Shown here: one piece after another, positions 11,793 through 42,606 of the stretch
Numbering within the stretch: position 1 is the stretch's first letter
Layout of the letters: each line of letters opens with the position of its first letter
Assembly (NCBI GenBank): GCA_038043805.1
Contig: JBBTBG010000003.1
Coordinates: 1 to 42,606 of the forward strand
Length of the DNA stretch: 42,606 bases
Reading direction: 5' to 3'
Source of the DNA: Nanobdellota archaeon
GTDB lineage: Archaea > Nanobdellota > Nanobdellia > Pacearchaeales > GW2011-AR1
The notes under the pieces: model-generated
What the model was told of the DNA's origin: nothing
What the model saw: the letters and a program-made list of their open reading frames with translations, nothing else
Databases searched by the model: none
Position numbers and translations under genes: made by a program

Positions 11793-11796
11793 ATTT

Positions 11797-12892: not shown

Positions 12893-12901
12893 AAAAGTAT
12901 T

Positions 12902-12917: not shown

Positions 12918-12919
12918 TA

Positions 12920-12927: not shown

Positions 12928-12948
12928 CCTCTTATTGCTCTTTGAGTG

Positions 12949-13569: not shown

Positions 13570-13607
13570 AAGAAAATCTTTATCTACTTCTTTAACATTC
13601 TCTTGGG

Positions 13608-15010: not shown

Positions 15011-15032
15011 ATTTTTTACGCGACTCTTCTCT

Positions 15033-15040
15033 ATTTAAAA
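15033..15040 (-). promoter_or_regulatory. TATA box (minus-strand TTTTAAAT) for the 14519..15010 gene
   Basis: Its centre is ~26 nt upstream of the start codon at 15010. Confidence 0.4.
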
Positions 15041-15077
15041 ACAATGGTGCTCGATCGTAGAGATTAAAGAAATACTT

Positions 15078-16558: not shown

Positions 16559-16581
16559 ATTCTATCAATGCATAGGAAAGA

Positions 16582-16589
16582 TTTATATA
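16582..16589 (-). promoter_or_regulatory. AT-rich near-palindromic TATA element between the divergent PHP and AbrB-PhoU genes
   Basis: tttatata is centred ~27 nt upstream of the PHP start at 16558. It may also serve the plus-strand gene, leaving a short leader. Confidence 0.35.
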
Positions 16590-16619
16590 TTTCTTATAGT
16601 ATTTATAGTAATAATAGAA

Positions 16620-17672: not shown

Positions 17673-18623
17673 ATGGCAAAGTTATCCAATCCGCATGCAG
17701 GAAGTCTGCAATTCTGGCCTCGTAAGAGAGCCGCAAAAATCGTTCCTAGTGTGAACTGGAGTGTTGTTAAAGGAAAAGATAAAACCTCTGGAATATTAGG
17801 ATTTCTAGCATATAAAGCAGCAATGGCCACAGCGTTAGTTAAAGATACAACTTCTGACTCTCTCTCAAAAGGAAAGAAAATATATCTTCCTGTGACAATT
17901 CTTGAAGTTCCTCACTTAAAGATTTTTTCTATTCGTTTTTATAAAAATAGTATTGTTATGAAAGATGTGATTGTTTCTCAAGATAAAGAACTAAAAAAAC
18001 TTCTCAGACTTCCTAAAGATCTCAAAACTTTCGAATCTCAAATTCCTCAAGGCTATGACGACTTAAGGCTGATAGTTTACTCCTTGGCAAAACAAACTTC
18101 CATCAAAAAAACACCTGACCTTGCAGAAGTAGGTATAAGAGCAGAAAACAAACTAGAATTTGTAAAGACTCTTATCGGAAAAGAGATTACCTTAAAAGAT
18201 TTTTTACAATACAATTTATTAGATATGCGCGGATTGACAACTGGAAGAGGTCTTTCAGGTCCAGTCAAGCGATTCGGCATAACCTTAAAACAGCATAAAA
18301 CAGAAAAAGGCGTTCGCCGTCCAGGTTCTTTGGCTCCTTGGCATCCAGCACGCGTCACCTTCAGAACACCTCAAGCAGGTCAACTCGGCATGTTCACTCG
18401 TGTACACTACAATCTCAATGTTATCTCTTCAGGATCTATTGCAGAAAAAAATATCAATCCAGGAACAGGATTCAAACATTACGGAAAAATAAGATCTGAC
18501 TATCTTATTATTAAAGGAAGCGTTCAAGGTCCAGTCAAGCGTCAAATTCTTCTTACTCCTTCATTCCGCCCAACAAAACTCACAGCTAAAAGAAAATATG
18601 AATTTCAGGAGCTCATAACATGA
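17673..18623 (+). CDS. rpl3: Ribosomal protein uL3
   Basis: N-terminal PHAGSLQFWPRKRA, with the expected length and operon position. Confidence 0.95.
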   Translation: MAKLSNPHAGSLQFWPRKRAAKIVPSVNWSVVKGKDKTSGILGFLAYKAAMATALVKDTTSDSLSKGKKIYLPVTILEVPHLKIFSIRFYKNSIVMKDVIVSQDKELKKLLRLPKDLKTFESQIPQGYDDLRLIVYSLAKQTSIKKTPDLAEVGIRAENKLEFVKTLIGKEITLKDFLQYNLLDMRGLTTGRGLSGPVKRFGITLKQHKTEKGVRRPGSLAPWHPARVTFRTPQAGQLGMFTRVHYNLNVISSGSIAEKNINPGTGFKHYGKIRSDYLIIKGSVQGPVKRQILLTPSFRPTKLTAKRKYEFQELIT

Positions 18624-18666
18624 AAATTGGATGCAGGGTGTTGAGAGACCAGCAGGTGGTTTTCAC

Positions 18667-19461
18667 ATGAAAGCACAACTCTATTCAATAGATGGTGAGA
18701 AAAAATCAAATATAGATCTTCCAGATTTATTTAACACCCTTATTCGAGAAGACTTGGCTGCAAAAGTATTTGAAGCTGAAAAATATAAACGCATGCAACC
18801 CTATGCAGGTTACAAAGAAGCAGGAAAGAGACATTCAGCCTCTGGAACGATTAGTCATATGCGTCATACTTGGAAAGGACATTATGGTAAGGGTATCGCT
18901 CGCTTACCAAGAAAAACAATGTATCGACGTGGTACACAATTCTTCTGGGTGGGTGCAGAAGTTTCTCAAACTCGTGGTGGAAGAAGCGCGCATCCTCCGT
19001 TAGGTGTTCATCGACCAAGAAAAATTAATGAAAAAGAACTTCGCATTGCGATACATACTGCTTTCGCAGCAACAACAAACAAAGAAGCACTAGTAAAGAG
19101 ATACGCGACTCTCGCAGCAGCCAAAGATCTTCCTCAAGTTCCATTCATTATAGAATCTCTTCCTCAAAAAACAAAGGAGCTTCATGCAACTATTAATAAG
19201 ATGCTAGGCACTCTTGCTTCACTTGCATTTAAGAGAAAAGAAGTCCGCTCAGGCATCGGAAAACGCAGAGGAAGAAAATATAAGTCAACCGCAGGGCTAC
19301 TCATAGTTAAGGGAAGAACAGAAAAACAAACTTATAGTGGTGTTGATATAAAATCAGTCACAGAAATCTCAATGCATGATCTCTATCCTCTAGGAAGACT
19401 TACACTTTACACACAACAAGCTCTTAAGGAATTACAAGAACAGGAGAAAAAACATGCTTAA
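18667..19461 (+). CDS. rpl4: Ribosomal protein uL4
   Basis: Position after rpl3. ATG 18667 is preceded by an AGGTGG Shine-Dalgarno. The ORF-track start at 18631 is an upstream in-frame extension. Confidence 0.9.
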   Translation: MKAQLYSIDGEKKSNIDLPDLFNTLIREDLAAKVFEAEKYKRMQPYAGYKEAGKRHSASGTISHMRHTWKGHYGKGIARLPRKTMYRRGTQFFWVGAEVSQTRGGRSAHPPLGVHRPRKINEKELRIAIHTAFAATTNKEALVKRYATLAAAKDLPQVPFIIESLPQKTKELHATINKMLGTLASLAFKRKEVRSGIGKRRGRKYKSTAGLLIVKGRTEKQTYSGVDIKSVTEISMHDLYPLGRLTLYTQQALKELQEQEKKHA

Positions 19462-19693
19462 GCCAATAACCACAGAAAAAGCAGTCAAACTTATAGATAG
19501 CGAAAACACTCTTCTCTTTGCCAGTGACAGGCATGCAACAAAGCCAGAAATAAAAAAAGAAGTTGAGTCAGTTTTCAGCGTCAAAGTCGCAGACATTCGT
19601 ACATTCATCAAAAATAATGAAAAATATGCCTATGTTAGGCTCAACAAACAGTTTCCTGCCATCGATGTGGCAACGAAACTAGGAATGATTTAA
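19454..19693 (+). CDS. rpl23: Ribosomal protein uL23
   Basis: 79 aa. KPITTEKAVKLIDSENTLLF...VATKLGMI is the typical uL23 pattern, in the expected position. Confidence 0.9.
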   Translation: MLKPITTEKAVKLIDSENTLLFASDRHATKPEIKKEVESVFSVKVADIRTFIKNNEKYAYVRLNKQFPAIDVATKLGMI

Positions 19694-19694
19694 T

Positions 19695-20072
19695 ATGATA
19701 AAACAAATACTTGAATACGCGCCTGTAACTTCTGAACAACCTACATTGGTTACATATGCTTCTGATTTGCTAAACCTCTCTCCTGGAACAGATGTGAAAG
19801 TGTGTCATATAGGAACTCTTCCTGTTTCACAGCAGACCAGAGATGTGTGGACATTTTACGAGGCAGTAGGAGAAGACAAAGACAGAGTCAGACTTCTTCA
19901 ACGTGTTTTTCCTCGAGAGATTCACATGCTGGCAGCCAATGTGATGAGGGTTACCACTTCTGCAAGAGGTCTTATTTTCCAGAGTGGATTCGACCACCTT
20001 ATTTATATGCCAGATGAAAGAAAAGTCGCCTTTCCCATAGTTGATAAATTCCTCAGGGGGTTCGGCAAGTAA
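19695..20072 (+). CDS. Orphan 125-aa protein embedded between rpl23 and rpl2 (function unknown)
   Basis: ATG lies 1 nt after the rpl23 stop, and its TAA lies 1 nt before the rpl2 ATG. No recognisable motif. Composition (9 Arg, 6 Lys) is unlike the Lys-rich flanking r-proteins. Confidence 0.6.
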   Translation: MIKQILEYAPVTSEQPTLVTYASDLLNLSPGTDVKVCHIGTLPVSQQTRDVWTFYEAVGEDKDRVRLLQRVFPREIHMLAANVMRVTTSARGLIFQSGFDHLIYMPDERKVAFPIVDKFLRGFGK

Positions 20073-20073
20073 C

Positions 20074-20787
20074 ATGGGTAAGCGCATTATTGCACAGGCA
20101 CGCGGGCATGGAAGCTTAACTTATCAGGTACGCAAACGAGCATACATCTATAGAATCAAATATCCTATGCAAGAAGGTTCAGCAGAAATTCTTAGCATTA
20201 TTCACTCAGCAGCGCATTCAGCTCCATTACTTAAATTAAAAGTCAATAATGAAATCTGCTATAACCCTGCATTCAACGGCGCAGTGGTAGGAGACAGCGT
20301 AACTATTAAACCAGATGCTGAGTGTAAGACTGGAAATGTGCTAATGCTCAAAAATATTATTCCTGGGACTAATATTTACAATATAGAAAACAATCCAGGA
20401 GATGGAGGAAAGATGATGCGTGTTGCAGGCACAAGCGCAATACTTCTCAAGAAACTTGACCACAATAAAGTAAGTATTCAAATGCCGAACAAACATGCAA
20501 AGACGAATTTAATAGTTGTAAGCGGAGATTGCAGGGCAACTGTTGGAATCATCGCAGGCTCAGGGCGCAAACTCAAACCATTTATAAAGGCAGGTCCCAA
20601 ATTCTACAAAATGAAGGCAAGAAACAAGCTCTGGCCACGGACTTCTGCGGTAAAGATGAACGCAGTTGATCATCCATTCGGTTCAGGAAGAGGTAAGCGC
20701 ATTAAGCCAAAGATCGCAAAGCGCAATGCTCCTCCAGGAACGCGTGTCGGTCATATTCGTCCTAGAAGGACAGGAAGGAGCAAATAA
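20074..20787 (+). CDS. rpl2: Ribosomal protein uL2
   Basis: MGKRIIAQARGHGS ... VDHPFGSGRGKR ... GHIRPRRTG motifs. The ORF-track start at 20041 is an upstream extension overlapping the orphan gene. Confidence 0.95.
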   Translation: MGKRIIAQARGHGSLTYQVRKRAYIYRIKYPMQEGSAEILSIIHSAAHSAPLLKLKVNNEICYNPAFNGAVVGDSVTIKPDAECKTGNVLMLKNIIPGTNIYNIENNPGDGGKMMRVAGTSAILLKKLDHNKVSIQMPNKHAKTNLIVVSGDCRATVGIIAGSGRKLKPFIKAGPKFYKMKARNKLWPRTSAVKMNAVDHPFGSGRGKRIKPKIAKRNAPPGTRVGHIRPRRTGRSK

Positions 20788-20789
20788 AA

Positions 20790-21194
20790 ATGGCAGAAGA
20801 AGTAATTCTTAAATCTAAGGAAATATTTTATCGAGGCAAAAATCTTGAAGACCTCAAAAAAATGGATGTCAGAGAATCTGCAAAGTTCCTACCTTCACGC
20901 TCAAGAAGAACTGTCTTAAGAAATTTTGATATGATTGAAAAATTCATCAAGCGCTGTGAGAAGAAAGTTGCAATGAAGAAAAAAATCAGAACACACTTAA
21001 GAGATATAGTAGTAGTCCCAAAACTTGTAGGTCATACAATCCAAGTCTACAACGGAAAATTGTTTAATGAAGTAAAAATCTCCGCATTAATGATCGGCCA
21101 TCGTCTGGGAGAATTCTCACTAACGCGTGGAAAAGTCACTCACGGAACACCAGGTCTTGGATCAACAAAGAGCTCGGCAGGAGAGAAGAAGTAA
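20790..21194 (+). CDS. rps19: Ribosomal protein uS19
   Basis: VGHTIQVYNGKLFNEVKI..MIGHRLGEFSLTR motif, in the expected position. Confidence 0.95.
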   Translation: MAEEVILKSKEIFYRGKNLEDLKKMDVRESAKFLPSRSRRTVLRNFDMIEKFIKRCEKKVAMKKKIRTHLRDIVVVPKLVGHTIQVYNGKLFNEVKISALMIGHRLGEFSLTRGKVTHGTPGLGSTKSSAGEKK

Positions 21195-21195
21195 C

Positions 21196-21954
21196 ATGAC
21201 AGAAAAGCCACAGTCTCGTCCAGAAGGAAAACATCATCATCCAACACAACAAAAACAGCAGCAAAAGCAAGAGAAGAAGCAGGTTGCCACAGCAAATACT
21301 ACTAAGGAAACAAAAATTGTCACTCCCTCAATTCCAGTTCCTTCTCCAACTCTTTCACCAATATCTTCATCACCTTCACCGCATTCTCCATCTGATAACA
21401 CTTCTTCTACATCAACACCCTCAGCTCTTCCTCCTCAAGTCTCATCTCCAACCACAACTCCTTCTCAATCTCCATCAGAAAAACCTGCAAAGGCACCTGC
21501 TCCAAAACCAACAAAAAAAGACGAAGCAGTAGCAAGAGGCATAAATCTTCACGCCTCTAAAAAGCATTGCATGTATCTTTGTAACTTCATCAAAGGCAAA
21601 CCTATTGATCAAGCAATCTCCCAACTACAAGAAGTTCTCAAATTCAAGCGCGTTATTCCAATGAAAGGAGAAATTCCTCATCGTTCTGCTCCAGGCATCA
21701 TGTCTGGCCGTTATCCTATCAAAACAACTCAGCAGTTTATTCCATTGCTTAAAGCTCTTAAAGGTAATGCAATTGTTAACGGTCTGGAATTGGATAAAAC
21801 TAGAATTACTTATGGTTCATCAACGTGGGCTTCTCGTCCAGCTAAGCGAGGTGGCATGAGATTTAAAAGGGCATTTGTTGTCCTCAAGGCACGGGAAGTT
21901 CATATGAAAGAAAAAACAAAAAAATCAGAGAAAAAGCAAGAGGAAAAGAAATAA
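21196..21954 (+). CDS. rpl22: Ribosomal protein uL22 with a ~110-aa low-complexity N-terminal extension
   Basis: The core is ARGINLHASKKHCMYLCNFIKGKPIDQAISQL...GRYPIKTT. ATG 21196 is 1 nt after the rps19 stop. I found no in-frame ATG/GTG/TTG between it and the conserved core. Confidence 0.9.
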   Translation: MTEKPQSRPEGKHHHPTQQKQQQKQEKKQVATANTTKETKIVTPSIPVPSPTLSPISSSPSPHSPSDNTSSTSTPSALPPQVSSPTTTPSQSPSEKPAKAPAPKPTKKDEAVARGINLHASKKHCMYLCNFIKGKPIDQAISQLQEVLKFKRVIPMKGEIPHRSAPGIMSGRYPIKTTQQFIPLLKALKGNAIVNGLELDKTRITYGSSTWASRPAKRGGMRFKRAFVVLKAREVHMKEKTKKSEKKQEEKK

Positions 21955-21955
21955 C

Positions 21956-22666
21956 ATGGAAGAAAAAAAATTCGTCGGATTTAAAAAAGAAGAGCTTTCA
22001 GTTAAAGAGTATGTCAAGCGTGCTCTAGGAAAAGGTAAGATTAGCAACGTATCTATTGAATACACTCCAGTAGGAGAGAAAATAGTTATTGCAACAAGTC
22101 GTCCAGGAATGGTGATCGGCAGAAAAGGAGAAAAAATCGAAGAACTCACAAGAGTTATTAAAAAGAAATTTAAGTTTGATAATCCTCACATTGAAATCAG
22201 GGAAATCATGGATGCTTTACTCGATGCACAGCTTGTTGCGGATGAAATTGCACTCAGTCTTGAGCGCGATGGACCGCAAAAATTCAAAGTGATTGCTTAT
22301 AAGATGATCCAAGAAATGATGAATGCAGGAGCTTTAGGAGTGGAAATTGTTCTTTCAGGAAGACTTCCAAGCGAGCGGGCAAGAAGCTGGCGCTTCTCTC
22401 AAGGATATCTCAAAAAGACAGGAGATCCAGCAAAAGTTGTTGATAGAGCAATGTCTCAAGCAACAACACTTCCAGGCGTAGTAGGTATCAAAGTAAGTAT
22501 CTTGCCACCTAATGCACATATTCATGATCGTATCGTAATTGATGAGGAAATGCTTGCAAAATTAAAGACTATGACTGATTCAAAAAGTGAAGAGAGTCAG
22601 GAAGAGAAGGAAGAGGATAAGCCTAAGAAAAAGAAAAAATCACAAAAAGCAGGAGAAAAAACATGA
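21956..22666 (+). CDS. rps3: Ribosomal protein uS3 (KH domain) with an acidic/basic C-terminal tail
   Basis: KH-like PGMVIGRKGEKIEEL and LSGRLPSERARSW motifs, in the expected position. Confidence 0.95.
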   Translation: MEEKKFVGFKKEELSVKEYVKRALGKGKISNVSIEYTPVGEKIVIATSRPGMVIGRKGEKIEELTRVIKKKFKFDNPHIEIREIMDALLDAQLVADEIALSLERDGPQKFKVIAYKMIQEMMNAGALGVEIVLSGRLPSERARSWRFSQGYLKKTGDPAKVVDRAMSQATTLPGVVGIKVSILPPNAHIHDRIVIDEEMLAKLKTMTDSKSEESQEEKEEDKPKKKKKSQKAGEKT

Positions 22667-22872
22667 CTCTATTACGAATGAAAGAAGTAGTAAAAATGAC
22701 TGTCAAGGAGAGGCAGGCAAAAATACAAGAGCTTCGGTTTTCATTAATTAAATCTCATGTAACTGCTCATAAGGCAACCGCCAAGACCAAAGAGATTAAA
22801 AGGGCACTTGCACGTCTTCTAACTGCCAATACCTTCAACAAATCCCTTGCGGAGGAGTTGAAAAAGAAATAA
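22663..22872 (+). CDS. rpl29: Ribosomal protein uL29
   Basis: 69 aa and helical. LRMKEV...ERQAKIQELRFSLIK fits uL29, in the expected position. Confidence 0.9.
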   Translation: MTLLRMKEVVKMTVKERQAKIQELRFSLIKSHVTAHKATAKTKEIKRALARLLTANTFNKSLAEELKKK

Positions 22873-22874
22873 CT

Positions 22875-23174
22875 ATGGACCCTGATCCATCCTTCGGATT
22901 CCCAGAAGAATCCGAATTGTTTGACGAAATCGCGAAGGGCGAACAAAAAATCACCGTGTCGACGGTAGCTCGAAGATACGGAAAGATTACTACCCTTGTA
23001 AGCGGCTTTGACAAGAACTTTGACATCAAAGGAACTGCAAAGCACCTCAAGGAAAAGCTCGCCTGCGGTGGTACCATCAAAGATGGCATCATCGAGCTTC
23101 AAGGAAACCACAAGAAGCAAGTAAGACCCGTTTTAGTAGGGCTGGGTTTTCCCGAAGAATCAATTAGTGATTGA
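22875..23174 (+). CDS. Translation initiation factor aSUI1 (eIF1 homologue)
   Basis: 99 aa. ITVSTVARRYGKITTLVSGF....DIKGTAKHLKEKLACGGTIKDGIIELQGNH is the SUI1 pattern. Confidence 0.9.
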   Translation: MDPDPSFGFPEESELFDEIAKGEQKITVSTVARRYGKITTLVSGFDKNFDIKGTAKHLKEKLACGGTIKDGIIELQGNHKKQVRPVLVGLGFPEESISD

Positions 23175-23195
23175 GCGACCAATACAGACAACACC

Positions 23196-23561
23196 ATGAA
23201 AACAGAAAAGAAACAAAGTAAGAAAGAGCAGAAGGAATCAGTAGCTGGAGCAGAGCATGTCTCGCAGCAGACAATTTCCACAAGAGGAAGAATCTTCGAA
23301 GGAAAAGTCACAAAGAAATTCCCCACACGAGTGGTTGTAGAAAGCGAGAGAACAGTATATGTCAAAAAATATGAGCGCTTCTATAAAAAGAAAAGCAGAA
23401 TTCACGCTCGTCTTCCACAAGGAATGGATGTGCATATAGGAGATCTGGTGCACATTCAAGAGTGTCGACCATTAAGCAAGATTATTCATGCAATTGTTGT
23501 CAAAAAGATAAAATCTGCACAGGCACTTACTCATTCTACAGAAGCGGAGAAGAAACAATGA
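23196..23561 (+). CDS. rps17: Ribosomal protein uS17
   Basis: GRIFEGKVTKKFPTRVVVE...KKYERFYKKKSRIHA...GDLVHIQECRPLSK motifs. Confidence 0.95.
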   Translation: MKTEKKQSKKEQKESVAGAEHVSQQTISTRGRIFEGKVTKKFPTRVVVESERTVYVKKYERFYKKKSRIHARLPQGMDVHIGDLVHIQECRPLSKIIHAIVVKKIKSAQALTHSTEAEKKQ

Positions 23562-23959
23562 AACCTATATCAGCACGCGTTACTCGAGGACTCAATATAG
23601 GAAGCAATGTCGTAGCTGCAGATAATAGCGGTGCGCGTATTGTGAGGATTACAGGAGTTAAGCACGGAAAATCTAAGAGAGGTCGTCAACAATATGCAAA
23701 AGTCGGTGATTGGGTGAAGGTCTCTGTTCGAGCCGGAAAGCCAGAGCTCAAAGGACAGGTTTTTGATGCAGTAGTCATCAGGCAGAAAAAACCTTATATG
23801 CGAATAACGGGAGAGCGTGTCTGTTTTGAAGACAATGCCGTAGCCATTCTCAAAGATGAAAAAGGCAATCCTAAAGGAACATTCATCAAAGGTCCCGTAG
23901 CTAGAGAAATTCATGAACGCTGGAAAGAGGTCGCGAAGATCGCGCAATACGTCTTATGA
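23558..23959 (+). CDS. rpl14: Ribosomal protein uL14
   Basis: The start MKPISARVTRGLNIGSNVVAADNSGAR overlaps the rps17 stop by ATGA. The ORF-track start at 23462 is an upstream extension. Confidence 0.95.
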   Translation: MKPISARVTRGLNIGSNVVAADNSGARIVRITGVKHGKSKRGRQQYAKVGDWVKVSVRAGKPELKGQVFDAVVIRQKKPYMRITGERVCFEDNAVAILKDEKGNPKGTFIKGPVAREIHERWKEVAKIAQYVL

Positions 23960-24381
23960 AATCCACATTTTCAACTTCTTGGAAGTCAAGTATTCAGCCA
24001 AGAAAGCAGCACAAATACAGACATAATGCTCCATTGCACATTAGGCATAAGTTTTTAAGCGCTCATTTATCTAAGGATTTAAGGAAAAAGTATGGCAAGA
24101 GGAATCTTCCCCTTCGAAAAGGGGATGAGGTGCTTGTCGTGCGTGGCGCCTTCAAAAAGAAAAAGGCCAAAGTAGCTTCTGTGGATCACGCTCGTGCACG
24201 GCTGACTCTCGAAGGAATACAACGTACAAAAAAAGATGGCACTAAAGTTTCAGTAGTGTTTAATCCAAGAGCCTTGCAGATTATCGCTCTCATTCTAGAT
24301 GATCCAAGACGTCTTTCAATTGACTCAAAGAAAACAGTAGGAGAAAAAAATGCATCTAACACGTCAACAAGTAACAACTAA
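23956..24381 (+). CDS. rpl24: Ribosomal protein uL24 (KOW)
   Basis: KOW motif LRKGDEVLVVRGAFKKKKAKV, in the expected position. Confidence 0.9.
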   Translation: MKSTFSTSWKSSIQPRKQHKYRHNAPLHIRHKFLSAHLSKDLRKKYGKRNLPLRKGDEVLVVRGAFKKKKAKVASVDHARARLTLEGIQRTKKDGTKVSVVFNPRALQIIALILDDPRRLSIDSKKTVGEKNASNTSTSNN

Positions 24382-24979
24382 ATTACCCATCCCAAGAAAG
24401 GGAACAAAATATATAGCAAGAGCTTCGAGTCATATTTCTCAGTCAGTCAGCGTTCTGCTTGCAATTCGAGACATGCTTAAACTTGCAAAAACTGCCAAGG
24501 AAGCCAGAAGAATGGTTCAGGAAAAACTTCTCAAGATTAATGGAAAAACTATAATGGACGTGCATGAAAGCATTAAGCTTTTCAATATCTTCGAAGCAGA
24601 TAAAACGTATCGTCTTTCTCTTCTTCCTACTAAAAAATTCACACTTGAAGAAGTTTCAGCAAAGGATGCCAAAGAACATCGTCTGGTGAAAGTAACAGAT
24701 AAGCGCCTCATTCAGGGGGGAAAAATACAATTAAATCTTCATGATGGCTCAAATGTTCTTACAACTGAAAAAGTAAAAGTCAATGATTCTCTTTATCTGG
24801 ATGCGGAAGGAAAAGTCAAGAAGCATATCTCTCCAGAGAAGGGAAAAACTGCGATGGTTATTGAAGGTAAACATACGGGAAAGCAAGGAACAATAGAATC
24901 TATATCGGGAAGTATTTGTCATCTCAAAGTCAACAAGGAGGTTCTGGTAGTACAACTTTACCAGCTTATAGTACAATGA
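24350..24979 (+). CDS. rps4e: Ribosomal protein eS4
   Basis: MHLTRQQVTTKLPIPRKGTKYIA...LAIRDMLKLAKTAKEARR is the eS4 N-terminal/S4-domain pattern. This protein is specific to archaea and eukaryotes. Confidence 0.9.
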   Translation: MHLTRQQVTTKLPIPRKGTKYIARASSHISQSVSVLLAIRDMLKLAKTAKEARRMVQEKLLKINGKTIMDVHESIKLFNIFEADKTYRLSLLPTKKFTLEEVSAKDAKEHRLVKVTDKRLIQGGKIQLNLHDGSNVLTTEKVKVNDSLYLDAEGKVKKHISPEKGKTAMVIEGKHTGKQGTIESISGSICHLKVNKEVLVVQLYQLIVQ

Positions 24980-25509
24980 AACAACAGCTAAATAAGCAGG
25001 AAGTAAAAGTAGAAAATACAATACGTTCTCCAAGGATAGAAAAGGTTCTTCTCAGTTGCGGAGCTACAGGAGACGACCTCACAAAGGCAAAAAAACTTCT
25101 TGATCTTATCTCTCAACGCAAGGCGCAAATTATTGCATCTCAGAAACGTATTCCTGATTTCGGTGTACGCCCAGGTTTGGAAGTTGGAACACGAGTCACG
25201 CTTCGCGGAAAAGAAGCTGTAACGTTACTACTCAGGCTCTTAGGTGCAGTAGATAATTTGCTAAAGAAAAAACAAGTTTCCGACAATCATTTTTCTTTTG
25301 GAATCCATGAATATATTGAGATTCCAGGAACCGAATATCAAAGAGATATAGGCATTAGAGGCCTCAATGTTACAGTTGTCTTTTCTCGTAAAGGCTTACG
25401 TGTTACGAATAAGAAAAGAAAGTCAGCACATTTACCAAAAAAACAAAATGTCACAGCCCAAGAAATTATCAAGTACATGGAGGATCACTTCAAGACGAAG
25501 TTTAAGTAA
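24976..25509 (+). CDS. rpl5: Ribosomal protein uL5
   Basis: ATG 24976 overlaps the eS4 stop. [18 protein letters not shown] ... [13 protein letters not shown] motifs are present. Confidence 0.9.
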
Positions 25510-25511
25510 AG

Positions 25512-25745
25512 ATGACAGCAAGCGACTGGAATAAAATAGCAAGTAAACAATTGAAAAATAAGCCAGTAGTTTTACAGAAATTCCTCAAATTTAATAGACC
25601 TAAAGTGCGCAAGATGGGTATCGCATCTAAAAAATGTGAGCGTTGCGGTCGCTTTGGCGCACATCTTAGTCAATATAATCTCAATCTTTGCAGGCAATGC
25701 TTTAGGGAGATTGCTACAAAGATAGGATTCAAAAAATATAGTTAA
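25512..25745 (+). CDS. rps14: Ribosomal protein uS14 (zinc-ribbon type)
   Basis: CERCGR...[17 protein letters not shown], with a ~20-aa N-terminal extension relative to the usual short archaeal form. Confidence 0.9.
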
Positions 25746-25746
25746 C

Positions 25747-26121
25747 ATGAGCCAAGACAAAGTAGCCGATGCACTAAATCAAATCATGAACGCCAAAAGG
25801 GCACGAAAGTCAGTCGTGACTCTTAAAGCACACTCAAAGCTTTTGCTTTCTATTCTCGCGATTGCAAAGCTCAAGGGATATATCAAAAATTATAAAGCAG
25901 ATGGAGTCAAACTAGCTATAGAATTAGGAAGGATTAATGGATGCAACGCAATAAAACCAAGATATTTTATTGCTGTAGAAGACATTGAAAAATATACTAA
26001 GCGATACCTGCCTGCTAAAGACATAGGCATTCTTATCTTGACGACAAATCAAGGACTTATGACACATCAGACTGCTTTAGAAAAAAATATCGGGGGAGGG
26101 CTTCTAGCCTACATATACTAA
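25747..26121 (+). CDS. rps8: Ribosomal protein uS8
   Basis: VADALNQIMNAKRARK ... GGGLLAYIY motifs. Confidence 0.95.
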   Translation: MSQDKVADALNQIMNAKRARKSVVTLKAHSKLLLSILAIAKLKGYIKNYKADGVKLAIELGRINGCNAIKPRYFIAVEDIEKYTKRYLPAKDIGILILTTNQGLMTHQTALEKNIGGGLLAYIY

Positions 26122-26122
26122 C

Positions 26123-26668
26123 ATGAGAAAAGAATTGAAAGAATCCATTACTATTCCTCAAGGAATAGAGTGCAAGGTAGAAGGAAAAATACTAACGTGT
26201 AAAAAAGAAGGAGTAGAAATCTCACGCAAGTTAACTCTTCCAGGAATTCTTATATCTCTAGAATCAAATAATATTACAATACATACGCCAAAGGGAAATA
26301 AAAACGATTACAAAAAAATAAAATCAACAATAGCACATATTCAAAACATGTTTTTTGGAATAAATAATAAATTTACATATTCTTTAGAAGCGTGCAACGT
26401 TCATTTTCCCATGACTCTCAAAACTGAGCCAGGGAAACTAATCATCAATAACTTTCTGGGAGAGAAAGTCCCACGCACAGCAAAAATCCTCCCTCAAGTA
26501 ATCATGGAAGTAAAGGGTACAAAAATTACTCTCACTTCTCAAGATAAAGAAGCAGCAGGTCAAACAGCTGCCAATATAGAGAAAGCAACAAAGATACGCT
26601 ATCGGGACAGGAGAATCTTCCAGGATGGTATTTTTATAACGAGTAAGCCTGAGGAAGGTGTGGCATGA
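26123..26668 (+). CDS. rpl6: Ribosomal protein uL6
   Basis: Two-domain uL6 pattern, in the expected position between rps8 and rpl32e. Confidence 0.9.
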   Translation: MRKELKESITIPQGIECKVEGKILTCKKEGVEISRKLTLPGILISLESNNITIHTPKGNKNDYKKIKSTIAHIQNMFFGINNKFTYSLEACNVHFPMTLKTEPGKLIINNFLGEKVPRTAKILPQVIMEVKGTKITLTSQDKEAAGQTAANIEKATKIRYRDRRIFQDGIFITSKPEEGVA

Positions 26669-27033
26669 GCAAGAAGAATCCTACGTTCCTACGTTCAGAT
26701 ACAGTTCGTCATCTCAGGTTAGGTAAAAAGCGTCGTAAGCTCCAAAAGTGGAGAAGACCTCGAGGACATCATAGCAAAATACGACTTAAGCGTTTTAGTT
26801 ATCCTACTCAACCAGGCGTAGGGTATGGTACTGAAAAGAAAGCAGCAGGAAAAATAGAAGGCCGCCTACTCTTACTCATTCACAATGCCGCTGAACTTGC
26901 AAAAGTAAATCCTAAGACCCATGCAGTAATTCTTGCAAGAATAGGGGCAAAGAAAAAAATAGAACTACTTAAGAAAGCTCAAGAATCAAACATCATCGTA
27001 ATAAACGCTCAAATAGAGAGGACTAAAGCATGA
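26665..27033 (+). CDS. rpl32e: Ribosomal protein eL32
   Basis: RHLRLGKKRRKLQKWRRPRGHHSKIRLK motif. Confidence 0.9.
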   Translation: MSKKNPTFLRSDTVRHLRLGKKRRKLQKWRRPRGHHSKIRLKRFSYPTQPGVGYGTEKKAAGKIEGRLLLLIHNAAELAKVNPKTHAVILARIGAKKKIELLKKAQESNIIVINAQIERTKA

Positions 27034-27437
27034 ACTTAGAAAAAAAGAAAATTCTTGCAGCAAAAACTTTTGGTGTTGGAAAAGAAAGAATAGTTCTTAA
27101 TCAGACGCGTCTTGCAGACATTAAAGAGGCAATAACCAAGCAAGATATTCGAGATCTTTTTACAGATAAAGCGATTGTTATCAAGGAAATAAAAGGGCGT
27201 AAGTCTTCTCCAAAAAGAACAACACGAAGACGTGCAGGAAGTATTAAAAAGAGAGTCAAGAACGGAAAAAGACAATACATTATTTTAACACGCAAATTAC
27301 GAAGACATCTTGCAGAATTAAAGAGAAAAGATCTTATCAAGAAAGAGAACTATCTTACTCTTAGAAAAGAGATTCGAGCAAGAGCATTTAAAGATAAAAA
27401 TCACTTTAAGGAGAGAATAATTCAACTTTCACCATGA
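27030..27437 (+). CDS. rpl19e: Ribosomal protein eL19
   Basis: KKILAAKTFGVGKERIVLN...IKGRKSSPKR motifs. Confidence 0.9.
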   Translation: MNLEKKKILAAKTFGVGKERIVLNQTRLADIKEAITKQDIRDLFTDKAIVIKEIKGRKSSPKRTTRRRAGSIKKRVKNGKRQYIILTRKLRRHLAELKRKDLIKKENYLTLRKEIRARAFKDKNHFKERIIQLSP

Positions 27438-27907
27438 GACGAACATTTAGAAGACGCAGAAAAGAACAGAAAACTGATTATCGTGCACGCTTAGCTCTGC
27501 TCAAATCAGGTAAACCTCGTTTAGTGATTAGAAAGACAAATAAGTTGCTTATTGTTCAGATTGTCGCATCGGAAGGTGCACAAGACAAAGTAATTTTAAC
27601 AGTTACTTCTAAGGACTTGTTTATGCACGGATGGCCTAAAGAATCACCAGGAAGTCTTAAGAGCCTTCCTGCAGCATATCTCACAGGCTATTTGATCGCA
27701 AAAAAAGCCAAAGCAAAAACTCCACAAGCGATTCTTGATATTGGTCTGCAAAGAAGCATTCCCAAATCAAGAGTTTACGCAGTTCTTAAAGGAGCAGTAG
27801 ATGGAGGGCTTACTATTCCTCACAATCCAGAAGTATTTCCTACGCAAGAAATGTTTGCAAAACATAAAAATAATAAACTTATGGAGGGCATAAAGCATAA
27901 AATTTAA
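27434..27907 (+). CDS. rpl18: Ribosomal protein uL18
   Basis: RRRRKEQKTDYRARLALLKSGKPRLVIRKTNK motif. Confidence 0.95.
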   Translation: MRRTFRRRRKEQKTDYRARLALLKSGKPRLVIRKTNKLLIVQIVASEGAQDKVILTVTSKDLFMHGWPKESPGSLKSLPAAYLTGYLIAKKAKAKTPQAILDIGLQRSIPKSRVYAVLKGAVDGGLTIPHNPEVFPTQEMFAKHKNNKLMEGIKHKI

Positions 27908-27909
27908 CT

Positions 27910-28728
27910 ATGGCTGAAAATGATACAATTAATACTATGAAAGACCTTATCGAGGCAACTCCTGAAGAAGTAGCTAAGCTTGAAAAGCAACAGGAAGAAC
28001 AAGCCGCGAGGCTTAGAGAAGAAGAACGTCCTCTCACTAAATCTCAAAGAAAAGCTCAACGGGATGAAGAAAATGAAAAAAAAGCACTTGCTGCATGGGT
28101 TCCCAAGACAGCGTTAGGAAAGGCTGTAAAAGCTGGAAAGGAAAAAGATTTTGATGAACTTCTCACATCTCATAAGAAAATTCTTGAGAGTGAAATTGTT
28201 GATCTCTTGTTACGTTTGGAAAATGATCTGCTATTAATCGGTCAAGCAAAAGGAAAGTTTGGAGGAGGAAAGCGTAGAGCATGGAGGCAGACACAGAAAA
28301 AGACTATGGAAGGAAACGTTGTAACCTTCTCTTCCCTTGCAGTCGTAGGAGATAGGAAGGGTCATGTAGGAATAGGCATGGGTAGGGCAAAGGAAACACT
28401 TCCTTCTAGAACAAAAGCATTGCGACAAGCAAAATTGAGCATCATTAAAGTGGAGCGAGGATATGAGTCTCCAGAGGAAAAAGCATTAAAAGTCGAACCT
28501 CATACAGTCCCATTTATTGTTCAAGGAAAATGTGGTAGCATTCGTATAAAGCTAATTCCTGCACCTAGAGGAACAGGTCTGGTTGTAGGAGATGAATGCA
28601 AAAAAATACTTCGTCTTGCTGGAATTGCAGATGTCTATGCAGTAACACGTGGGCAGACACGGACGACGTTCAATGTGGCAAAAGCGTGCATAGACGCACT
28701 CAAAAAAACAAAGGAGATGCAGCTATGA
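27910..28728 (+). CDS. rps5: Ribosomal protein uS5 with a ~60-aa E/K/Q-rich N-terminal extension
   Basis: The core begins at WVPKTALGKAVKAGK...ESEIVDLLL, with a later dsRBD-like/S5 C-domain (GRAKETLPSRTKALRQAK). Confidence 0.9.
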   Translation: MAENDTINTMKDLIEATPEEVAKLEKQQEEQAARLREEERPLTKSQRKAQRDEENEKKALAAWVPKTALGKAVKAGKEKDFDELLTSHKKILESEIVDLLLRLENDLLLIGQAKGKFGGGKRRAWRQTQKKTMEGNVVTFSSLAVVGDRKGHVGIGMGRAKETLPSRTKALRQAKLSIIKVERGYESPEEKALKVEPHTVPFIVQGKCGSIRIKLIPAPRGTGLVVGDECKKILRLAGIADVYAVTRGQTRTTFNVAKACIDALKKTKEMQL

Positions 28729-29141
28729 TAATCGCAATCCGCATCTCAGGTCTCGTAGAAATGCCTCAAGCGCCGCAAGAAACATTATTCAGAATGAGGC
28801 TGCGAAGAAAATACTCGGCAATTATTTTAGAATCTACACCTTCAAACCTCAAATTGCTTCAGAGTGTGAGAAACTTTATAGCTTATGGTGATATTAATCC
28901 AGAAACACTTGCTCTTTTAGTTGAAAAACGCGGCGTTGCTATCGACAAAAAGAAAGTAGATACAAAAAAAGTGCTCGAGCAACTCGAGAAGAAAGGTCTC
29001 GAAGGTGTAGGTTTAAAACCCTTCTTCCGCCTCCATCCTCCTCGCGGAGGCATTGACAGTAAACTTCACTATCCAATTCGTGGTGGAGTTCTCGGAGATA
29101 ATAAGAAAGATATTAATGAGCTCATTGGGAGGATGTTATGA
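28725..29141 (+). CDS. rpl30: Ribosomal protein uL30
   Basis: The start MIIAIRISGLVEMPQAPQETLFRMRLRR overlaps the rps5 stop by ATGA. Confidence 0.9.
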   Translation: MIIAIRISGLVEMPQAPQETLFRMRLRRKYSAIILESTPSNLKLLQSVRNFIAYGDINPETLALLVEKRGVAIDKKKVDTKKVLEQLEKKGLEGVGLKPFFRLHPPRGGIDSKLHYPIRGGVLGDNKKDINELIGRML

Positions 29142-29253
29142 GTCATCAATCAAATGGAAGTTGTCAGCAAGACGTCAGAAATCAGAGATTCCTGAGCGCC
29201 ATTGAGAACCTTTGGTTCTCAAGGAACCGTAGGTTTCTTACTGAGGATGTTAT
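29129..29253 (+). repeat. 11-nt direct repeat GAGGATGTTAT (29129-29139 and 29243-29253) bracketing a 114-nt insertion at the rpl30/rpl15 junction
   Basis: Read directly. The two repeat starts are 114 nt apart. Deleting one repeat plus the intervening sequence gives GAGGATGTTATAAGATG, i.e. an rpl30 TAA stop, 1 nt, then the rpl15 ATG. Confidence 0.8.
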
Positions 29254-29260
29254 AAGATGA
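29138..29260 (+). CDS. Possible 40-codon micro-ORF (MSHQSNGSCQQDVRNQRFLSAIENLWFSRNRRFLTEDVIR) bridging rpl30 and rpl15
   Basis: Its ATG overlaps the rpl30 stop (ATGA at 29138-29141), and its TGA overlaps the rpl15 ATG (ATGA at 29257-29260). It is below the ORF-track size cut-off. It has 6 Arg and no Lys. Coding status is unproven. Confidence 0.3.
   Translation: MSHQSNGSCQQDVRNQRFLSAIENLWFSRNRRFLTEDVIR
29204..29239 (+). repeat. Two tandem related palindromic hairpins (GAGAACC-TTT-GGTTCTC and AAGGAACC-GTA-GGTTTCTT)
   Basis: Read directly. The first is a 7-bp perfect stem (29204-29220). The second is an 8-bp stem with one G.T pair (29221-29239). Both share the core GAACC-N3-GGTT. Confidence 0.75.
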
Positions 29261-29754
29261 AAACCAAAAAACGTTGCAAATCTTCTCGATTTAGAGGATC
29301 TCAGTCAGCGCGAAGAGGAAGGTCAGCACGCGCACGAGGTTCTGGAAACCAAGGAGGGAAAGGATGGGCTGGCACGGGCAAGCGCGGAGATCAAAAGAAT
29401 TCTCTCGTAGTCAAGATTACAGGAGGCAATAATTATTTTGGTAAAGACCAAACGCTTCGCAGAGGCACTCAACAAAAAAAACTGCAAGTCATCAATCTCT
29501 CAGACGTTCAGCAGAAAGCATCTTCTCTCACATCAAAAGACGGCTTTATCAACTTAGAAGGCTATAAGATACTAGGAGAAGGCGATATTTCTTCTCCTCT
29601 AAAAATTAAAGCAAGCGCCGCATCAAAATCAGTTCAAGAAAAAATTAAGGCAGCTAAAGGAACGCTCATTCTTCCAAGTCAAGCAGATGAAAAGAAGGTA
29701 GAAAAGAAAGAAGAAAAAGTTCCTAAGAAAAAAGCTGAGAAGAAATCAGCTTAA
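29257..29754 (+). CDS. rpl15: Ribosomal protein uL15
   Basis: Gly/Arg-rich N-terminus SRFRGSQSARRGRSARARGSGNQGGKGWAGTGKRG, in the expected position before secY. Confidence 0.9.
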   Translation: MKTKKRCKSSRFRGSQSARRGRSARARGSGNQGGKGWAGTGKRGDQKNSLVVKITGGNNYFGKDQTLRRGTQQKKLQVINLSDVQQKASSLTSKDGFINLEGYKILGEGDISSPLKIKASAASKSVQEKIKAAKGTLILPSQADEKKVEKKEEKVPKKKAEKKSA

Positions 29755-29791
29755 ATTTTCCTGCCCTCGATGAATTAATCTTTCCGCAGGC

Positions 29792-29799
29792 TTTAAAAA
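29792..29799 (+). promoter_or_regulatory. TATA box (TTTAAAAA) for secY; leaderless geometry
   Basis: Its centre is ~26 nt upstream of ATG 29821. Confidence 0.45.
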
Positions 29800-29820
29800 C
29801 TCTTTTTTGTACATCAAAGT

Positions 29821-31209
29821 ATGGATATTAAAAATATTCTGTATAATCTGCCAGAAGTTAGACATCCTCAGGAAAAAAAGGTGAGCTTTAACGTCAAGCT
29901 TAAGTGGACATTGATTATTCTTTTTGCATTCTTTATTCTTGCAAATATCCCTCTCTACGGACTTGGGCCCAATTCTCTGGCAAATTTTGAATATCTTGCA
30001 ATCATTCTAGGAACAGATTTTGGCAGCATCATTAGTCTAGGTATTGGTCCGATCGTTATGGCCTCTATTATATTACAGCTACTTGTGGGTTCAAGCATTC
30101 TCAAAATTGATACCACTACTACCGAAGGGAAAAAGTATTTTCAAGGGTTGCAGAAACTCGGAGTTATTTTCTTTATTCTCTTTGAGGCAATGGTATATGT
30201 TCTCATGGGCGGGCTTCAGCCAGTCACTCCTAATCTCACGCTCATTCTCATTGTCCAGCTCGTTCTTGGAGGTCTTGCTATCATGTTCATGGATGAAGTC
30301 GTTACTAAATGGGGATTTGGATCAGGAACATCGTTGTTTATCGTCGCAGGAGTCGCATGGCGCATGTTTGCACAACTCTTTCAATTCATTACTCCTACAG
30401 GAGAGAATTGTCTTGCGAATTTCTCTGAGGGTCAGACCTCTTGCGTTGGCAAGGTTCTTGTAATTATTCATTCAGTCATCAATGGCGCCCCTACAGAAGC
30501 ACTCGCAGCACTCGCAGCTATTCTTGCAACTATAGTTATTTTTCTCCTCGTTGTTGCTGCTCAAAGCCTTAAAGTAGAGATTCCACTAACCTATGAACGG
30601 CTCCGAGGACATAGCATGAAATGGCCATTGGCATTTTTCTACGCTTCAGTAATTCCAGTTATTCTTGTTGCAGCACTCCTTGCAAACTTACAGCTTTTTG
30701 GAATTCTTCTAGAAAATTCAGGAAATCCTATTCTCGGAACTTTTAGTCAAGGCCAGCCGACTTCAGGTCTGGTATTTTGGTTGACAAATTCAAATCTTCT
30801 TGATGCGACAATCAAAGGAAGTCTTTCACAGCGCCAAATTTGGCAGTCCATTATTCATACTATCTTCTTTATGATTTTCTCAGCAGTTTTTGCGGTGCTT
30901 TGGGTTAGAACATCTGGAATGGACGAGTCATCTCAGGCAAAGAAAATTCTTGCATCAGGCCTTCAGATTCCAGGATTTAGAAAGGACCAGCGCGTTCTTG
31001 AATCAATCTTAAAGCGCTATATCTTTCCCCTCACAGTTATGGGGGGCCTTGCCATTGGACTTCTTTCAGCAATAGCAGATATTCTTGGGGCGCTTGTTTC
31101 AGGAACTGCAATTCTTCTTGCAGTCATGATTATGTATCAACTCTACCAAAGCGTTGCACAGCAGCATGCAGTAGATATGCACCCTGCATTAAGAAAGGTG
31201 ATGGGATAA
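29821..31209 (+). CDS. secY: Protein translocase subunit SecY
   Basis: 462 aa, 10-TM pattern, in the position after rpl15. SLGIGPIVMASIILQLL is the plug/TM2 motif. Confidence 0.95.
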   Translation: MDIKNILYNLPEVRHPQEKKVSFNVKLKWTLIILFAFFILANIPLYGLGPNSLANFEYLAIILGTDFGSIISLGIGPIVMASIILQLLVGSSILKIDTTTTEGKKYFQGLQKLGVIFFILFEAMVYVLMGGLQPVTPNLTLILIVQLVLGGLAIMFMDEVVTKWGFGSGTSLFIVAGVAWRMFAQLFQFITPTGENCLANFSEGQTSCVGKVLVIIHSVINGAPTEALAALAAILATIVIFLLVVAAQSLKVEIPLTYERLRGHSMKWPLAFFYASVIPVILVAALLANLQLFGILLENSGNPILGTFSQGQPTSGLVFWLTNSNLLDATIKGSLSQRQIWQSIIHTIFFMIFSAVFAVLWVRTSGMDESSQAKKILASGLQIPGFRKDQRVLESILKRYIFPLTVMGGLAIGLLSAIADILGALVSGTAILLAVMIMYQLYQSVAQQHAVDMHPALRKVMG

Positions 31210-42263: not shown

Positions 42264-42606
42264 AATCCAGTTTATCCTGCTGGCGGCTGCGGCTATTTGG
42301 TTTGCACTGAGACATGCAAGTCGTTTGTTTCGTAAGAAGTAAAAGGCGAACCGCTCATTAACACGTAGCTAACCTGCCCTCGAGCCGGTAATACCCTCGG
42401 GAAACTGAGACTAAGGACCGATAGATGATGTTTTCTGGAATGATTCATCGTCGAAAGTTCGCGCGAGGATGGGGCTGCGGCGGATTAGGTAGTTGGCGGG
42501 GTAATAGCCCACCAAGCCGATGATCCGTAAGGGCCTTTAGCGAGGAAGCCCTGAGAGGAAATCTGAGACACTATTTCCAGCCCTACGGGGTGCAGCAGTC
42601 GGGAAA
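42264..42606 (+). rRNA. rrs: 16S (SSU) rRNA gene, 5' ~340 nt only; continues beyond the window
   Basis: The 5' end AATCCAGTTTATCCTGCTGGCGG aligns to archaeal ATTCCGGTTGATCCTGCCGGAGG. Conserved blocks are CATGCAAGTCG, CATTAACACGTAGCTAACCTGCCC, GGGAAACTGAGACTAA and CCTACGGGGTGCAGCAGTCGGGAAA (the archaeal ~340-360 region). Confidence 0.9.

Follow-up and report, generated by a model that had tools for sequence, protein, structure and literature searches.

An open reading frame (ORF) of 125 codons, here called ORF A, lies between the genes for the ribosomal proteins uL23 and uL2 in the core operon of a Nanobdellota archaeon (GenBank assembly GCA_038043805.1, contig JBBTBG010000003.1; the whole stretch of 42,606 nucleotides (nt) that was analysed is referred to below as the window). 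We lean towards reading ORF A as an accessory, exchangeable passenger cistron in a chain of translationally coupled genes, and not as a constitutive ribosomal protein (r-protein). This reading builds on the coding status of ORF A, the geometry of its junctions, its membership in a trio of homologues (the A trio), the patchy occupation of the same junction among relatives, the presence of a probably related family (B) at several junctions, one transfer event within that family, and a composition that is native and non-basic.

Results

ORF A fills the uL23-uL2 junction exactly

The host operon is a complete, canonical archaeal S10/spc-type cluster of 13.5 kb that extends from uL3 to uL15 and SecY, in the order uL3-uL4-uL23-ORF A-uL2-uS19-uL22-uS3-uL29-SUI1-uS17-uL14-uL24-eS4-uL5-uS14-uS8-uL6-eL32-eL19-uL18-uS5-uL30-uL15-SecY (uS14 at 25512-25745), and ORF A is the sole extra cistron in this copy. 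The layout claimed by the original prediction, with 1-nt spacers on both sides of the ORF, was confirmed in its coordinates by the sequence and the ORF list:

19454..19693, + strand: uL23 (rpl23), 79 amino acids (aa); PF00276, E = 1.9e-13; the junction is bounded upstream by its conserved 3' end, ...LGMI-TAA
19691..19697, + strand: left junction TAA-T-ATG; uL23 stop TAA at 19691-19693, spacer T at 19694, ORF A ATG at 19695
19695..20072, + strand: ORF A, 125 codons, TAA at 20070-20072; small, non-basic, predicted soluble protein; member of the A trio
20055..20061, + strand: AGGGGGT, in the final codons of ORF A (RGFGK); lies 13-19 nt before the uL2 ATG
20070..20076, + strand: right junction TAA-C-ATG; ORF A stop, spacer C at 20073, uL2 ATG at 20074
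20074..20787, + strand: uL2 (rpl2), 237 aa; PF03947, E = 2.3e-33; anchor of the comparative survey
17673..31209, + strand: host operon, from gene calls and Pfam matches, including those of the identical contig L001

With such spacing, ORF A cannot accommodate its own promoter or terminator. After terminating at the uL23 TAA, ribosomes could reinitiate 1 nt further on, at the ORF A ATG, and after terminating at the ORF A TAA they could do the same at the uL2 ATG. Co-transcription and translational coupling of ORF A with uL23 and uL2 fit this geometry, and an insert that keeps the coupling chain in this way would be expected to yield its product in roughly r-protein amounts. The AGGGGGT motif, one mismatch away from GGAGGT, is a possible Shine-Dalgarno-like element for coupled initiation of uL2, an assignment we make weakly: matches of this type precede uL2 at 59% of occupied sites as compared with 31% of control windows inside inserts, a modest enrichment in which the imperfect motif of ORF A was itself not scored as a match.

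ORF A bears the signature of a selected, soluble protein

The identical ORF A protein was called on six contigs from at least five samples, including Hainich groundwater, with 0 nucleotide differences in the ORF and a single polymorphism in the flanking 1.3 kb, which argues against an assembly artefact. An exhaustive phmmer search of 1.84 billion cluster representatives returned two real homologues, P0002 (122 aa, 50% identity to ORF A) and P0003 (133 aa, 41%). Both are located directly after the 3' end of uL23 on short contigs, and the uL2 encoded next to them is 89% identical to that of the window. A further match, P0004 (1046 aa, repetitive and WD/TolB-like; E = 3e-4 over 36 residues), was discarded as a repeat-driven chance hit.

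Within the A trio, a single frame is open in all three sequences, and it is the annotated one. Substitutions by codon position follow the order 3 > 1 > 2 (75/50/36, 65/52/42 and 67/53/42), and NG86 estimates of the ratio of non-synonymous to synonymous rates (dN/dS) range from 0.17 to 0.41 with dS saturated, indicating that ORF A is under relaxed purifying selection. The protein changes rapidly: dN is 0.45-0.54 in the trio vs 0.02-0.09 for uL2 in the same comparisons, placing the non-synonymous rate of ORF A at 6-28 times that of uL2. No hydrophobic segment occurs in ORF A (maximum KD(19) value, 0.84), and no transmembrane segment. Because of its open frame, codon-position bias, dN/dS and lack of a hydrophobic segment, the sequence data indicate that ORF A encodes a real, soluble protein kept by selection. 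ORF A is neither absent from relatives nor free of purifying selection, two of the outcomes that together were to count against the original prediction; homologues occupy the same slot twice, at dN/dS of 0.17-0.41.

ORF A was described as not strongly basic, with 9 Arg vs 6 Lys. These counts are right, and correspond to an isoelectric point (pI) of 7.9 and a net charge of +1, as compared with pI 9.4-11.6 and +4 to +34 for the r-proteins of the operon (n = 20). The accompanying impression of GC-richer DNA did not hold up, as GC content does not discriminate: it is 0.43 both in ORF A and in uL2, within an operon range of 0.33-0.46. GC content at third codon positions (0.35) and codon usage (0.65 on a scale akin to the codon adaptation index; operon range, 0.56-0.74) are both native. 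A viral or foreign origin was rejected on this native composition and on the failure to find any relative of the family in the phage and IMG/VR collections.

The uL23-uL2 junction is patchily occupied among relatives

The order uL3-uL4-uL23-uL2 is canonical in archaea (PMC10833476). We surveyed 80 genome and 80 metagenome loci of Nanoarchaeota, anchored on uL2 and drawn from metagenome-assembled genomes (MAGs) labelled Pace- or Woesearchaeota (~165 related loci overall; best uL2 identity to the window, 75%). Both uL23 and uL2 are held by 145 loci. In about 83 of these (83/145) the two genes are at most 10 nt apart, in agreement with the original claim that uL23 is normally followed directly by uL2. 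In 39/145, an ORF of ~60-195 aa fills the gap exactly.

The empty junction has the form ...GGAATGATATAA-N-ATGGG..., with a spacer of 1 nt in 39 and of -1 nt (an overlap) in 14 of the 83 empty sites. Among 40 occupied junctions, the spacer on the left measures 1 nt at 24 and -1 nt at 9; the one on the right measures 1 nt at 20 out of about 40. The inserts thus copy the native TAA-N-ATG or overlapping geometry of empty junctions on both of their sides. In a neighbour-joining tree of uL2, loci with and without an insert intermingle, even between sister taxa. In the pairs L017/L018 and L125/L120 (flanks 87% identical in nucleotides), the two alleles differ by exactly one ORF, the difference spanning from the ATG to the base after the stop; the inserts of these pairs have no non-coding sequence at their ends, and repeats there do not go beyond the start-codon context.

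Small ORFs without a Pfam match also occur at many other junctions in the clade: uL2/uS19 (15), uS17/uL14 (14) and uL14/uL24 (13). An operon on a Hainich H43 contig (L173:7324-20357; same organism as L029) carries eight extra Pfam-less cistrons, of 113 aa at uL3/uL4, 118 at uL23/uL2, 89 at uL2/uS19, 127 at uL14/uL24, 112 at eS4/uL5, 54 at uL5/uS14, 77 at uL6/eL32 and 109 at eL32/eL19; only the uL23/uL2 cistron belongs to the A/B family, and the other seven look helical and are mostly acidic. The 195-aa occupant of uL23/uL2 in L027:2794-3381 resembles an HD-domain phosphohydrolase by eye (H...HD...D pattern), which suggests that the slot takes unrelated genes.

At uL4/uL23, seven loci (L012, L093, L102, L121, L126, L135 and L168; e.g., L168:1946-2596) hold a gene of ~200-216 aa for a DEDD/RNase_T-type 3'-5' exonuclease. 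It diverges about as uL2 does and looks like a vertically inherited resident. In L174:1915-2073 this exonuclease is reduced to an internally deleted remnant of 52 aa that is still in frame and coupled, which shows that junction occupants can decay with their translatability kept.

ORF A probably belongs to a divergent superfamily of junction ORFs

Most occupants of the uL23/uL2 junction fall in one highly divergent superfamily, B, which we defined by iterative jackhmmer and profile searches of 5,135 six-frame ORFs from the surveyed loci. It comprises 21-27 members set off by a score gap from 1e-13 to 1e-2. The search drew in no unrelated matches, two apparent 'decoy' matches being further junction copies. 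A further ten or so occupants of the slot qualify as remote members (hhalign P between 1e-6 and 4e-3; 60 shuffled queries never fell below 0.056), and the remaining ones are unclassifiable singletons or clearly different. The median pI of the B family is 6.1.

Compared by hhalign with a profile built from B alone, the A sequences matched with a probability of 78.5% (P = 1.7e-5) over 81 collinear columns; the best P among 30 reversed or column-shuffled controls was 0.11. When the 272 window ORFs were scanned with a hidden Markov model (HMM) of B alone, ORF A came out as the best match (E = 0.008; the runner-up had 0.54). In a MAFFT alignment (A2), the A trio and B are collinear end to end, with conserved D, L, L, G, V, G, F, I, G, Y, L and G columns and no conserved catalytic residues. 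The shared architecture consists of ~105-160 aa with a DL..L..G..V.V / aromatic-x-G / F / G.I / Y.P core and a C-terminal (Y/F)...L...G helix. This hydrophobic, glycine and aromatic pattern can be detected by HMM across taxa whose uL2 proteins are only ~50% identical, far past synonymous saturation. ORF A also shares the niche of B, exactly filling an r-protein stop-start junction on the operon strand. From the profile evidence and the identical genomic niche, we consider homology of ORF A to the B family quite probable. The description of ORF A as an orphan accordingly stands in that no known family could be assigned to it, and gives way in that two close homologues exist and that ORF A probably falls in a superfamily whose ~35-40 members come from the same clade.

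A cassette of the B family was exchanged between divergent genomes

Most B members occupy uL23/uL2. Others are found at uL4/uL23, uL3/uL4, uL2/uS19 and uL22/uS3, and possibly at uS19/uL22. One sub-family (L157, L140 and L123; 31-35% mutual identity) occupies three different junctions in three genomes.

A comparison of L126/L168 with L170 revealed an insert far more similar than the genes on either side:

uL23 flank: 73% aa identity, dS 1.30
inserted B ORF: 91-92% aa identity, dS 0.07, dN/dS ~0.5
uL2 flank: 69% aa identity, dS 1.44

At the nucleotide level, identity drops from 0.91-0.98 within the insert to 0.6-0.8 on either side, with the transitions located in the last ~50 nt of uL23 and the first ~40 nt of uL2, which are universally conserved. 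An independent assembly (L171) confirms L170 at 99.8% identity. Because dS is 0.07 in the insert as compared with ~1.3-1.4 in the flanks, the sequences indicate recent horizontal transfer of this B cassette, most simply explained by homologous recombination within the conserved gene ends.

Decoupling in the reverse direction is seen as well: between loci L086 and L087, uL2 is 98% identical (47 codons available), but the A ORFs are 46% identical and the second ORFs cannot be aligned. We also considered allele swapping within the A trio and rejected it, as synonymous divergence there is not clearly above that of the flanks; we claim no horizontal transfer for A.

The A/B family is new to curated libraries

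The original prediction had recognised no motif in the protein, and sequence searches of Pfam, NCBIfam, PHROGs, PADLOC and the PDB were indeed empty for ORF A. Pfam gave no match at E <= 1, and NCBIfam gave noise only (deoC, E = 0.09). None of the 22 members of the A2 alignment matched an r-protein family or any other known family. PADLOC and the toxin-antitoxin families of Pfam gave nothing for ORF A and only single noise matches among the 22 members, and no domain match to a nuclease family (LAGLIDADG, HNH, GIY-YIG, PD-(D/E)XK or EDxHD) was found in Pfam, NCBIfam, PHROGs, PADLOC or the PDB. A word-indexed search of 5.8 billion proteins with the single sequence, the A-trio profile and the A+B profile recovered only the query, its two homologues and five B members, none of them named or carrying a Pfam domain; the A-trio profile added nothing further. 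Kinship with Rpp29 was tested by hhalign of A and of B against a 24-sequence Rpp29 alignment from related loci, and rejected (P = 0.31 and 0.39). The A/B family is thus new to curated libraries and has no Pfam model.

A single-sequence AlphaFold2 (AF2) model of ORF A reached a pLDDT of 38. The idea that the C-terminal helix mimics the tail of the aP1 stalk protein was considered and dropped, the resemblance being too short. Overall, the profile and structure searches brought up no well-known family for ORF A. Searching of the full-text literature likewise found no account of inserts at uL23/uL2 or of the A/B family, and no description of hypervariable, dispensable and exchangeable ATG-to-stop cistrons in a core cellular r-protein operon.

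Discussion

A proposed passenger cistron in a coupling chain

The evidence leads us to favour, if guardedly, an accessory and exchangeable passenger that rides in the coupling chain of the operon. The family is clade-restricted, very fast-evolving and dispensable, gained and lost between sister taxa as an exact ATG-to-stop unit, with at least one exchange between divergent genomes that probably proceeded via recombination anchored in the conserved ends of r-protein genes. The product is predicted to be small, soluble, near-neutral and beta-rich with a C-terminal amphipathic helix, and would most likely act by binding rather than by catalysis, in view of the lack of conserved catalytic residues and of a family-wide conservation limited to Gly, aromatic and aliphatic positions. 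As to its role, our tentative best guess is a binding protein that is useful under certain conditions and made in proportion to ribosomes; it might, for instance, assist or protect the translation machinery or a nascent r-protein encoded next to it. We prefer such a function, of benefit to the host under some conditions, to a purely selfish gene or a spacer devoid of meaning because the fold pattern stays recognisable across very deep divergence and no self-spreading feature is seen, a preference that is a judgement and not a result.

A bolder extension, which we regard as possible but doubtful, holds that the A/B ORFs are an undescribed kind of mobile unit: promoterless, ATG-to-stop 'coupled-cistron cassettes' that settle in the junctions of the r-protein operon, whose conservation and expression are the highest of any operon in cells, spread by recombination in ultra-conserved gene ends and hop between junctions. 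They would encode rapidly diversifying binding proteins dosed with ribosomes, such as protective or conflict factors aimed at the ribosome in DPANN symbionts.

Several points weigh against the passenger reading. Only one clear transfer pair was found, and direct signs of transfer and of slot-switching are confined to the B branch; neither ORF A nor its two close homologues show them. Within the A trio, synonymous divergence is about that of the flanks (fraction of identical codons, 0.45 vs 0.49), and the data for ORF A itself are compatible with vertical descent and rapid protein evolution. Its link to B is probable, not proven; the B-only HMM scores the A sequences at only 10.8-13.1 bits. In the window, and in the 75.8 kb of wider context, every match to the family lay at an operon junction, a weak test, since sampling was anchored on uL2 and covered only ~25-30 kb of non-operon DNA. 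The AF2 model obtained with an eight-sequence alignment, which suggests a beta-rich fold with a C-terminal helix at 114-124, is of low confidence (pLDDT 56.6, pTM 0.49), and a Foldseek search of the PDB with it gave nothing meaningful (best E = 0.24, TM score ~0.2). The suggestion of binding over catalysis is drawn from the lack of conserved catalytic residues.

Alternative explanations

The strongest competitor is a lineage-specific r-protein or constitutive ribosome-associated factor, incorporated into the large subunit or docked on it, and made at r-protein stoichiometry. The position in the core operon, with coupling geometry on both sides, is what such a protein would show, as are the purifying selection on ORF A and the finding of the family, in the sampled DNA, only at r-protein junctions; there is also a very weak similarity of the N-terminal 'G..V.V' to the SH3-like barrel of bL19 (E = 0.26). 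We nevertheless consider this explanation unlikely. ORF A (pI 7.9, net +1) and its family (median pI 6.1) lack the charge of their neighbours (+4 to +34), no r-protein model matches, and many close relatives, sister taxa included, have no family member. Slots and copy numbers vary, over at least five junctions, dN is 6-28 times that of uL2 and a cassette of one member was horizontally exchanged. For the same reasons the new r-protein proposed in the original prediction is not borne out. A ribosome-associated factor, also named there, is a possible reading. Its suggestion of a domesticated foreign insert comes closest in spirit to our own reading and fails on origin, since composition is native, viral or phage relatives were not found and the family is internal to the lineage.

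Alternatively, the DNA between uL23 and uL2 might simply be kept translatable for the sake of coupling, as a spacer ORF whose amino-acid sequence has no function. This would account for a gap that is always filled exactly, for the many unclassifiable singletons among the occupants, for the exonuclease remnant of L174, still in frame and coupled at 52 aa at uL4/uL23, and for the extreme turnover seen in L086/L087, whose B ORFs are 19% identical beside uL2 genes that are 98% identical. A dN/dS below 1 (0.17-0.41 in A; ~0.5 in the transferred B cassette) and a hydrophobic/Gly/aromatic pattern that is conserved beyond synonymous saturation speak against it, and empty junctions work without a spacer, so nothing forces retention of the insert. 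We regard a spacer as improbable.

Neighbouring position in an operon helps proteins to assemble co-translationally, and in eukaryotes some chaperones are dedicated to r-proteins. ORF A could be a dedicated escort of uL2 or uL23 that binds the nascent basic protein co-translationally until its incorporation into the subunit, being a near-neutral to acidic protein of non-enzymatic appearance beside very basic neighbours, with its commonest slot directly upstream of uL2 (39/145 loci). Yet the same family is located upstream of uL4, uL23, uS19 and uS3 elsewhere, many close relatives do without it, it shows no similarity to known chaperones, and rapid divergence is not expected for the partner of an ultra-conserved client; we rate this explanation lower still.

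More remote again is a free-standing, homing-endonuclease-like selfish gene, which would cut the empty uL23/uL2 junction and be copied in by repair with co-conversion of the flanks. Patchy presence of a precise insertion unit in a highly conserved essential-gene junction has this character, as does lateral spread, seen for the B branch, and the high identity of the transferred cassette extends into the first or last 40-50 nt of the flanking genes. These tracts, however, are segments that are conserved in all taxa anyway, the family occupies other junctions of different sequence, and neither a match to a nuclease family nor a conserved Asp, Glu, His or Cys column was found.

Finally, an artefact of assembly or annotation (a chimeric contig or spurious ORF), to which a metagenomic source and an ORF without annotation or database family might point, can be set aside, since the 1.3-kb uL23-ORF-uL2 segment recurs with at most 1 nt difference on independent contigs from several samples and assemblers, and homologues with a clear coding signature occupy the same slot in two other organisms.

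Relation to known systems

Non-ribosomal passengers are fixed in archaeal S10/spc clusters, among them aIF1/SUI1, Rpp29, adenylate kinase, SecY and the EMC3/DUF106-like insertase. Akin to ORF A, passengers such as SUI1, SecY and the EMC3-like gene are cistrons other than r-protein genes that are co-transcribed on the same strand within an r-protein operon. They are ancient, slowly evolving, fixed in position and recognisable by Pfam, whereas the A/B ORFs are restricted to one clade, patchy in distribution, variable in slot, hypervariable in sequence and without a Pfam match.

Phage 'morons' and free-standing homing endonuclease genes (e.g., T4 seg/mob) are inserted between conserved genes. Like the A/B ORFs, they are optional, sporadic single-gene inserts whose history is decoupled from that of the flanks and which are exchanged via flanking homology. 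Unlike morons, the A/B ORFs lack a promoter and terminator of their own, and unlike homing endonuclease genes they carry no nuclease motif. They also differ from such phage inserts in residing on a cellular chromosome, within the most conserved operon known, in having no viral relatives, and in forming a unit that runs exactly from ATG to stop.

Integron cassettes are promoterless single-ORF units that depend on their array for expression and can be exchanged between genomes, and the A/B ORFs resemble them in all three respects, their expression depending on the host operon. Here, however, the 1-nt spacers leave no room for attC, and expression would come from translational coupling and not from a Pc promoter. 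No integrase was seen among the annotated ORFs of the window, in a scan that covered all but the batch at 10449-17540.

Lineage-specific archaeal r-proteins, aL45-aL47, have reportedly been found by proteomics in Sulfolobus and Pyrobaculum. They are small, lineage-restricted and without universal homologues, as is ORF A, which like them might travel with the ribosome, but they are basic and stably present in their lineage, whereas ORF A is near-neutral and its family dispensable and mobile. The top profile match of the family, at the N-terminal 'L..G..V.V ... Y.G', was the SH3-like beta-barrel of bL19, and it was not significant (E = 0.26-0.31). bL19 is bacterial and basic, unlike ORF A, and the likeness has no statistical support; the AF2 model is beta-rich.

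The uL3-uL4-uL23-uL2 block is commonly treated as invariant, being concatenated for phylogeny and used as a synteny anchor. Our results show that one DPANN clade uses its stop-start junctions as permissive landing sites for small genes that evolve fast, are dispensable and are at least now and then exchanged horizontally. The junctions harbour an unannotated family, probably expressed at r-protein levels judging from junction geometry, in minimal genomes where each retained gene is informative. Recombination tracts that end within the terminal 40-50 nt of r-protein markers bear on marker phylogenies and on the quality control of MAGs. The system offers a tractable model for the acquisition of promoterless genes and their expression through translational coupling. 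Should these proteins indeed bind ribosomes, they would give archaea their first known ribosome accessories that are variable and specific to the strain. If the cassette extension is true, an operon with up to eight extra cistrons (L173) would serve as an expression platform for accessory genes in reduced genomes.

Other observations in the window and the surveyed loci

The window is ordinary core chromosome, encoding PCNA, primase, proteasome alpha, SBDS, exosome subunits, RpoK and uS2, and an EMC3-like gene in addition to SUI1 and SecY. A search with Rfam and for tRNAs found no tRNAs in it and one RNA feature, by which a structured RNA or other hidden feature was ruled out:

42264..42606: 5' part of the small-subunit ribosomal RNA, 343 nt, archaeal (RF01959, 278 bits), cut by the contig end

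Directly upstream of uL3, on the same strand, a 306-aa ORF (16620-17540) contains an AbrB/MazE-type N-terminal domain (PF04014, from the L001 table) and is possibly a regulator next to the operon. Within the operon, uL22 (21196-21954, 252 aa) has an N-terminal low-complexity extension of ~110 residues rich in Q, P, S and T, the Pfam L22 domain covering residues 114-204 only; a strong negative GC skew (-0.4 to -0.55) at ~21200-21700 coincides with the extension. The Rpp29 gene is not located between SUI1 and uS17 in the window (23174-23196, a 22-nt gap) or in the cassette-bearing clade, a check that was confined to this position in the genome; it is present at SUI1/uS17 in more distant Woesearchaeota-type loci (L046-L085). 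On a 150-kb Hainich H51 contig (L172:18420-19636), uS3-uL29-SUI1 has moved to a position after uS5 instead of after uL22, a rearrangement within an operon that is as a rule invariant.

Elsewhere in the window, an ORF at 2826-3578 joins a staphylococcal-nuclease domain (PF00565) to a lamin-tail domain (PF00932); overlap with the next called ORF (3382-4284) leaves its start and boundaries uncertain. The uS2 ORF (40243-41193) has 316 aa from a TTG start, with the best S2 domain match at residues 227-287 only, and either carries a long N-terminal extension or has a mis-called start.

Eight surveyed loci (L042, on DATJPO010000007.1, and L052, L057, L060, L061, L068, L076 and L082) are labelled 'Candidatus Omnitrophota bacterium' or 'uncultured Methanosarcinales archaeon'. 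Their operons are of the Nanoarchaeota type, with uL2 44-52% identical to that of the window, and the contigs are probably mis-binned or mislabelled MAG contigs.

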